The notes beneath the pieces are model-generated. The model ran no database searches and was not told the DNA's origin. It saw nothing but the letters and a program-made list of their open reading frames with translations. The position numbers and the translations under genes were made by a program. 330 bases of DNA from Escherichia coli (GTDB taxonomy: Bacteria > Pseudomonadota > Gammaproteobacteria > Enterobacterales > Enterobacteriaceae), in the NCBI RefSeq assembly GCF_003334765.1, contig NZ_QOWT01000140.1. The stretch is one strand, 5' to 3'. Of this stretch, positions 1-330 are shown piece after piece. Position 1 is the stretch's first letter, and every line of letters starts with the position of its first letter.

Positions 1-67
1 GGGCGTACTCATCGATTAATGACGTCGCAAGCTTTGTGGTTTTAGTTGACGTTGCAGGCATCGACAT
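1..67 (-). CDS. citG: Triphosphoribosyl-dephospho-CoA synthase CitG, N-terminal 22 codons; continues beyond the window start
   Basis: In the third minus-strand frame, an ATG at 67..65 opens a reading frame that translates to [22 protein letters not shown] and runs off the window at position 1. An in-frame TGA at 73..71 lies immediately upstream, so the ATG at 67..65 is the first possible ATG in this frame. The peptide matches my recollection of the E. coli CitG N-terminus, and citG follows citX in the citCDEFXG operon. It is absent from the ORF track because too little of it lies in the window. Confidence 0.75.
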
Positions 68-330
68 CGTTCAGCAGCGCCTCCATGCGGTTGAGTAAAT
101 CGGTCAGTTGATGGGTTTTTCCACGCGCGCAAACAGCTGCGCTTTGCTCGCACAACAGGCAGCGGCGAGGCGGCAGTGAATAATCGCGGCGGGAGAGAAT
201 GTCGCCTTCGGGCGTCAGGACATCGATATCCCATAACCGCCCGAGAGGATGATTATGTTCAAGCTCAATGGTGGCGAGCTTGAGGTCGCGAGCCGGGGCG
301 GCAATGCTCAACATGCCCTCCGGCCCGCTG
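42..330 (-). CDS. citX: Apo-citrate lyase phosphoribosyl-dephospho-CoA transferase (holo-ACP synthase) CitX, C-terminal portion; 5' end lies beyond the window
   Basis: The minus-strand ORF 42..314 from the six-frame track translates to [90 protein letters not shown], which I recognise as the C-terminal half of enterobacterial CitX. The stop codon TAA is at 44..42. The frame stays open upstream of the Met at 314 through position 330 (codons read ...S-G-P-E-G-M), so the Met at 314..312 is an internal methionine and the gene is truncated by the window. Recognition is from memory; no database search was possible. Confidence 0.9.
80..84 (-). promoter_or_regulatory. Shine-Dalgarno-like GGAGG upstream of the citG start, embedded in citX coding sequence
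   Basis: The plus strand reads CCTCC at 80..84, which is GGAGG on the minus strand. It lies 12 nt upstream of the citG ATG at 67..65, which is longer than the usual 5-9 nt spacing, so assignment as the ribosome-binding site is tentative. Confidence 0.35.

Follow-up and report, generated by a model that had tools for sequence, protein, structure and literature searches.

The 330-nucleotide window (the whole stretch of DNA analysed, from Escherichia coli contig NZ_QOWT01000140.1) contains, on its minus strand, the citX/citG junction of the E. coli citrate lyase operon (citCDEFXG). Of 5,426 complete E. coli genomes searched by megablast, 5,422 contain the window, always under citX and citG annotations. 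The RefSeq annotation of the matching loci gives citrate lyase holo-ACP synthase as the citX product and triphosphoribosyl-dephospho-CoA synthase as the citG product, so an earlier sequence-only reading of this DNA had both the genes and the strand right. The orthologue products match PF03802 (CitX) and the CitG homologues match PF01874. The two genes are adjacent and lie downstream of citCDEF, as expected for the pair that closes a citrate lyase operon. A PDB sequence search with CitG returned no solved relative.

Table 1. Features of the citX/citG junction, in window positions
Feature	Position	Strand	Remarks
citX, 3′ part	42..330	-	Stop TAA at 44..42; based on translation, E. coli annotation, and PF03802 in orthologues
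citG, 5′ part	1..67	-	Poorly conserved N-terminal extension; based on translation and PF01874 in homologues
Putative Shine-Dalgarno (SD) element of citG, GGAGG	84..80	-	Made by citX codons ATG-GAG-GCG (Met-Glu-Ala)
Spacer from SD to first ATG, 12 nt	79..68	-	Holds TGA (73..71) in the citG frame and ACG (70..68)
First ATG (ATG1), annotated and conserved citG start	67..65	-	PGAP, gene callers, orthologues
TCG codon between the two ATGs	64..62	-	Minus-strand reading
Second in-frame ATG (ATG2), Met3 of CitG	61..59	-	18 nt from the SD (spacer 79..62)
Out-of-frame citX/citG overlap, 26 nt	67..42	-	d = −26 in the convention of Tian & Salis

The citG ORF is in the +1 frame relative to citX and opens with ATG-TCG-ATG-CCT. 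The M-S-M-P-A-T-S... encoded from both ATGs is the annotated N-terminus of E. coli CitG, and the whole initiation site is embedded in the last 15 codons of citX. The positions of GGAGG and of the two ATGs, the M-S-M start, and the spacers of 12 and 18 nt that the sequence-only reading listed are exact when the minus strand is read. Absent from that reading are a TGA codon in the citG frame and the ACG that follows it, both within the spacer. The TGA closes the citG frame upstream, so ATG1 is the first possible start and the ORF cannot extend further in that direction. In every E. coli record inspected, PGAP places the citG start at window 67 and the end of citX at window 42, and all products from independent gene callers in the protein collection begin with MSMP.

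The first ~20 residues of CitG are variable in the CitG alignment. Because the two candidate N-termini differ by two residues within this non-conserved extension, no functional consequence is expected from the choice between them. We also considered a programmed frameshift that would yield a CitX-CitG fusion and rejected it by eye, given the in-frame TGA and a 26 nt overlap that contains no homopolymeric or slippery run.

The duplex of GGAGG with ACCUCCUUA at the 3′ end of 16S rRNA has a free energy of −9.3 kcal/mol. GGAGG is a 5 nt complement of the 16S rRNA 3′ end upstream of the start, where an SD-led site calls for at least 4 nt, and is the sole anti-SD-complementary site from −40 to +30 of ATG1; in this range there is no closer SD-like element at or below −3 kcal/mol for either ATG. 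The window contains two copies of GGAGG compared with 0.51 expected from shuffles, and two copies were reached in 17 of 200 shuffles. The occurrence of GGAGG alone is not significant; its significance stems from conservation. The second copy (321..317, minus strand) is inside citX, where it encodes part of Pro-Glu-Gly, and ends 2 nt before an in-frame Met codon (314..312), a spacing too short for initiation. It served as a negative control: 28 of 36 orthologues have GAA for this Glu, and the motif is not conserved.

Conservation and history of the citG start

A scan of one genome per species provided the citG locus with its flanks from 35 Enterobacterales species. Together with five further loci that were fetched individually (Yersinia, Providencia, Cedecea, Atlantibacter, and S. 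enterica) and two complete E. coli genomes, the comparison includes 43 loci; 38 are tabulated as genome loci, and the other five are those fetched individually. Junctions were anchored on the Met-Glu codons of citX. The anchored orthologues share a near-invariant junction module, ATGGAGGCNCTGCTGCATGATGCCGATT.

All 38 genome loci have GGAG(G), each with an ATG 9 and/or 12 nt after the 5-mer. The ATG is at spacer 9 in 30 of these loci, at spacer 12 in 29, and at both in 21. An ATG at spacer 18, the ATG2 position, occurs in eight. When the five further loci are included, GGAG(G) or GAGG is found at the same aligned position, with an in-frame ATG 9 and/or 12 nt downstream, in 43/43 loci (spacer 9 in 35, spacer 12 in 31, and spacer 18 still in 8). 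The SD-like core is GGAGU in Yersinia and Cedecea, GGAGA in Atlantibacter, and GAGGU in Providencia, and GGAG or GAGG is kept in S. enterica, in each case with the ATG at the same aligned spacing.

Five of the spacer-18 ATGs belong to Escherichia and the other three to unrelated lineages; in most of the remaining loci the codon is ATT (Ile). In four taxa outside Escherichia (Salmonella arizonae, two Edwardsiella species, and Intestinirhabdus) the 12 nt ATG is the sole candidate, with none at 18 nt, so a 12 nt spacer must be usable.

Relative to the consensus, two changes mark the Escherichia junction. In citX, His-Asp (CAT GAT) is replaced by Asn-Asp (AAC GAT), a change that replaces the 9 nt ATG by ACG and gives rise to the TGA immediately before it. 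A citX Ser (TCC) is replaced by Ala (GCC), and the same change turns the citG ATT into ATG2. The ACG at 70..68 thus stands where 35 of the 43 loci have their spacer-9 ATG. From this comparison of sequences, ATG1 is the conserved citG start and ATG2 a recent Escherichia substitution of Met for Ile, with spacer-18 ATGs also present in the three other lineages. The view that the Met in use is undecidable from sequence holds for a single sequence. It does not hold once orthologues are included, since these favor ATG1 (an ATG at spacer 9/12 in all 43 loci, at spacer 18 in 8/43). The sequence-only reading had also named a pattern that would count against it, orthologues that lack both GGAGG and the first ATG and retain the second. 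The opposite is found: GGAG(G) or GAGG is kept throughout, and it is the spacer-18 ATG that is missing from most loci.

The locus resembles genes with tandem ATG-ATG starts in that ATGATG, placed 9 and 12 nt from the SD, is the usual form among relatives. E. coli differs in having ATG-TCG-ATG: the upstream member of the ancestral pair is mutated to ACG, and the additional ATG further downstream is a new codon unrelated to that pair.

Within E. coli, three 65 nt junction haplotypes account for 4,122 of ~5,421 genomes (698 + 3,115 + 309). All three have GGAGG, ACG, ATG1, and ATG2, and they differ solely at window 78 (the second base of the spacer and third position of a citX Ala codon, GCG/GCA) and at one downstream site. 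This statement covers the 4,122 genomes; the other ~1300 have one to three differences over the 65 junction positions.

Spacing, RNA structure and coupling to citX

The optimal distance between SD and start codon is reported as 5–9 nt (PMC7264876) or, measured as DtoStart, as 13–14 (PMC9841429). Osterman et al. describe more than 15 nt from SD centre to AUG in only rare E. coli mRNAs (PMC3592434). By our own calculation, DtoStart in the convention of PMC9841429 is 8 plus the spacer for an SD that ends in ...GGAGG. The ancestral 9 nt ATG has a DtoStart of 17 and is 13 nt from the SD centre (to AUG), the E. coli ATG1 has values of 20 and 16 nt, and ATG2 has values of 26 and 22 nt. Both spacings are longer than optimal on either published scale, as the sequence-only reading had said. 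The 12 nt spacer to ATG1 falls at the margin of what occurs naturally in E. coli, and the 18 nt spacer to ATG2 lies beyond it. De novo initiation at ATG1 may be very weak given the 12 nt spacer, and other routes could contribute.

We find no RNA structure that would hide the start region. A 111 nt junction fold has a minimum free energy of −20.5 kcal/mol compared with a shuffle mean of −24.1 (z +1.19), and a 61 nt junction fold is no more stable than shuffles (z +0.32). The RNAalifold consensus of 20 orthologous junctions contains 0 pairs, and an Rfam scan of the window at E ≤ 1 gave no match. A masking hairpin, or a “split RBS” that would shorten the spacer, was rejected on the basis of this pairless consensus fold. 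As in systems coupled by RNA unfolding (rpmI-rplT and MS2 coat-lysis, reviewed in PMC12548453), citX ribosomes traverse the downstream RBS. Unlike those systems, the citX/citG junction has no stable or conserved structure that sequesters the SD or AUG. With no predicted or conserved structure, there is nothing for citX ribosomes to unmask.

Distances between stop and start are given as d = xstart − xstop − 3 (Tian & Salis), which is −26 for ATG1 and −20 for ATG2. In the measurements of Tian & Salis (PMC4538824), re-initiation falls off linearly once d is below −10, and the authors advise overlaps of at least 25 nt to eliminate it. A 2025 review summarizes that there is no coupling at −25 (PMC12548453). 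Among the orthologues the citX stop is 20 to 38 nt after the SD, varying by species, and the ATG stays at 9/12. The corresponding stop-start distance ranges from about −11 to −32, and the SD-ATG spacing is fixed. Because the stop-start distance varies while the ATG stays put, selection acts on the SD-ATG geometry and not on the stop-start geometry.

Initiation at both ATGs, with SD-bound ribosomes using ATG1 and ribosomes that re-initiate from the citX stop using ATG2, would produce two forms of CitG, one longer than the other by Met-Ser. In favor of this model, ATG2 shares the citG frame and lies just 17 nt before the citX stop. At its d of −20 the Tian & Salis fit predicts roughly 40% of plateau re-initiation (our own calculation with the parameters of PMC4538824). 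The junction is unstructured, and three other lineages independently gained an ATG at this position. Against this, ATG2 has no SD in range and is absent from 35/43 loci, and the first ~20 residues of the protein vary, which makes it unlikely that a difference of two residues is selected or important. We therefore regard the use of both ATGs as unlikely. It is similarly improbable that, on top of a shift of the Escherichia start by one codon downstream, ATG2 came to be used as well by re-initiating ribosomes, giving two N-terminal CitG isoforms by two routes. Some re-initiation may occur as a minor contribution, and in such a model it would favor ATG2, which is nearer to the stop.

It is also doubtful that the SD is too distant to matter much and that CitG is made mainly by ribosomes that end citX at the TAA, scan back, and re-initiate upstream at either ATG. 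Both spacers are beyond the optimum, the genes overlap, coupling is common for the second gene of an overlapping pair (PMC12548453), and an SD can promote coupled initiation too. However, the d of −26 for ATG1 is in the range where re-initiation declines and beyond the overlap advised to eliminate it (PMC4538824), the review gives no coupling at −25 (PMC12548453), and the orthologues conserve the SD-ATG spacing and not the stop-start distance. The citX/citG pair shares several features with termination-reinitiation pairs (ATGA, TGATG/TAATG, and −8 motifs), including co-directional overlap within one operon and a downstream RBS inside the upstream gene. It lacks the enriched coupling motifs (−4, −1, and −8) and has no short positive distance. 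Its overlap is 26 nt and not 1, 4, or 8 nt, which is a range where measured re-initiation nears zero, and the overlap length is not conserved between species. The suggestion in the sequence-only reading that citG relies more on coupling to terminating citX ribosomes is thus unsupported, given the value of d, the variable stop distance, the nucleotide-level selection on the SD, and the lack of inhibitory structure.

Synonymous constraint and the probable mode of initiation

When citX and citG from 36 loci are aligned by codon, 146 columns have an amino acid that is invariant and has synonymous codons. Two of the 146 are codon-invariant, and the Glu codon of the SD, GAG in 36/36 loci, is one of them. 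Both GAA and GAG occur in each of the other eight invariant Glu columns, and GAA is the more frequent of the two overall (540 vs 383). Four of the five bases of GGAGG are set by the Met and Glu codons and the first base of the Ala codon, and the choice between GAG and GAA is the sole free site. Because this GAG is codon-invariant, as one of only two such columns, GGAGG at 84..80 is selected at the nucleotide level, as expected of a functional SD. The invariance of GAG and the presence of the ATG at every locus indicate conservation of SD and start beyond the need of the overlapping coding sequence.

It is very improbable that GGAGG is conserved merely for Met-Glu-Ala of CitX, with citG translated independently of the SD: the MEALL motif of CitX is conserved and the protein fixes four of the five bases, but the GAG/GAA site does not vary in seven further loci either, every other invariant Glu column does vary, GAA is the more frequent codon in these genes, and the Ala is replaced by Thr, Arg, Trp, Ser, Met, or Val, yet GGAG or GAGG is kept.

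The reading that we favor, and consider fairly likely, is an ordinary SD-led citG start with a stretched spacer, located at the first ATG and inside the end of citX. The 3′ end of 16S rRNA would pair with GGAGG and position ribosomes, which would initiate at ATG1 across the 12 nt spacer. The conserved enterobacterial module may be described as GGAGG-N9-ATG(ATG). Escherichia would have lost the 9 nt ATG (now ACG, with TGA before it), leaving the start to the downstream member of the ancestral tandem pair, at spacer 12. ATG2 would be a lineage-specific codon change from Ile to Met and at most a minor start. The long spacer would make initiation weak, which may suit an enzyme needed in catalytic amounts to make a prosthetic-group precursor. 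We infer weak initiation, mainly de novo and directed by the SD, with ATG1 encoding the in vivo N-terminus. A search of the searchable literature found no experimental N-terminus or initiation-site mapping of CitG.

The citG start is already known as a standard RBS embedded in the upstream operon gene, and it is annotated in thousands of genomes. It resembles other SD-led sites inside an upstream gene in having a 5 nt anti-SD complement before the ATG, an SD within codons of the preceding gene, and a constrained synonymous site. It differs from the usual SD-led sites in that the E. coli spacer is 12 nt, compared with an optimum of 5–9 nt and with 9 nt in most relatives. The comparative data confirm the annotated CitG start (MSMP...) as the conserved one, which is of use mainly for annotation quality. 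On a small scale, the locus cleanly illustrates measurable synonymous-site constraint on an SD that lies within an upstream gene, and it illustrates a start codon that moves by one codon within a tandem ATG pair.

Variant junctions and the accessory cit island

An Escherichia genome labelled E. coli SCPM-O-B-8794 (L004:2470-2534) has AAT for AAC and CCG for TCG at the junction. In-frame ATGs thus stand at all three spacers, 9, 12, and 18 nt (M-M-P-M), in a junction apparently intermediate between Citrobacter-type and E. coli-type starts. The three-ATG haplotype has no exact match in 5,426 complete E. coli genomes, where the best match has two mismatches.

Two loci have a damaged citX beside an intact citG start. 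In E. coli XL10-Gold (L003, NZ_CP081008.1), citX is annotated as a 5′-truncated pseudogene and the locus adjoins slp instead of citF, which indicates a deletion or rearrangement that removed citCDEF and the 5′ end of citX; citG and its start region are intact. In Citrobacter koseri NCTC10786 (L039), the citX frame seems disrupted, with multiple stops upstream of the conserved ...MEALLHDADSSHIN* tail, and citX could be a pseudogene or the product of an assembly error. The SD and the tandem ATGs of citG are intact in this genome despite the disruption.

The window has a 100.0% match in 19 E. coli records, every one of which carries two cit clusters. In the three records inspected (L092, NZ_CP007592.1 4968000-4996000; L093; and L094), the exact copy is in an accessory island flanked by IS elements, with the gene order amidohydrolase, MFS transporter, citCDEFXG, and a second acnB. 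In Santai, where more of the upstream flank is covered, a GntR-family regulator precedes the amidohydrolase. The window most probably comes from this accessory island copy, and the analysis of the start site is unaffected. In B2 strains such as CFT073 and Nissle, the canonical locus shows 99.7% identity. The CitG encoded in the island has 295 amino acids and a C-terminus different from that of the 292 amino acid K-12 protein, and the island acnB is 96–98% identical to the core acnB. Two copies of the window occur in about 46 of 5,422 genomes, with two copies located on plasmids. About 20 genomes have the citG-acnB junction at ≥99% identity.
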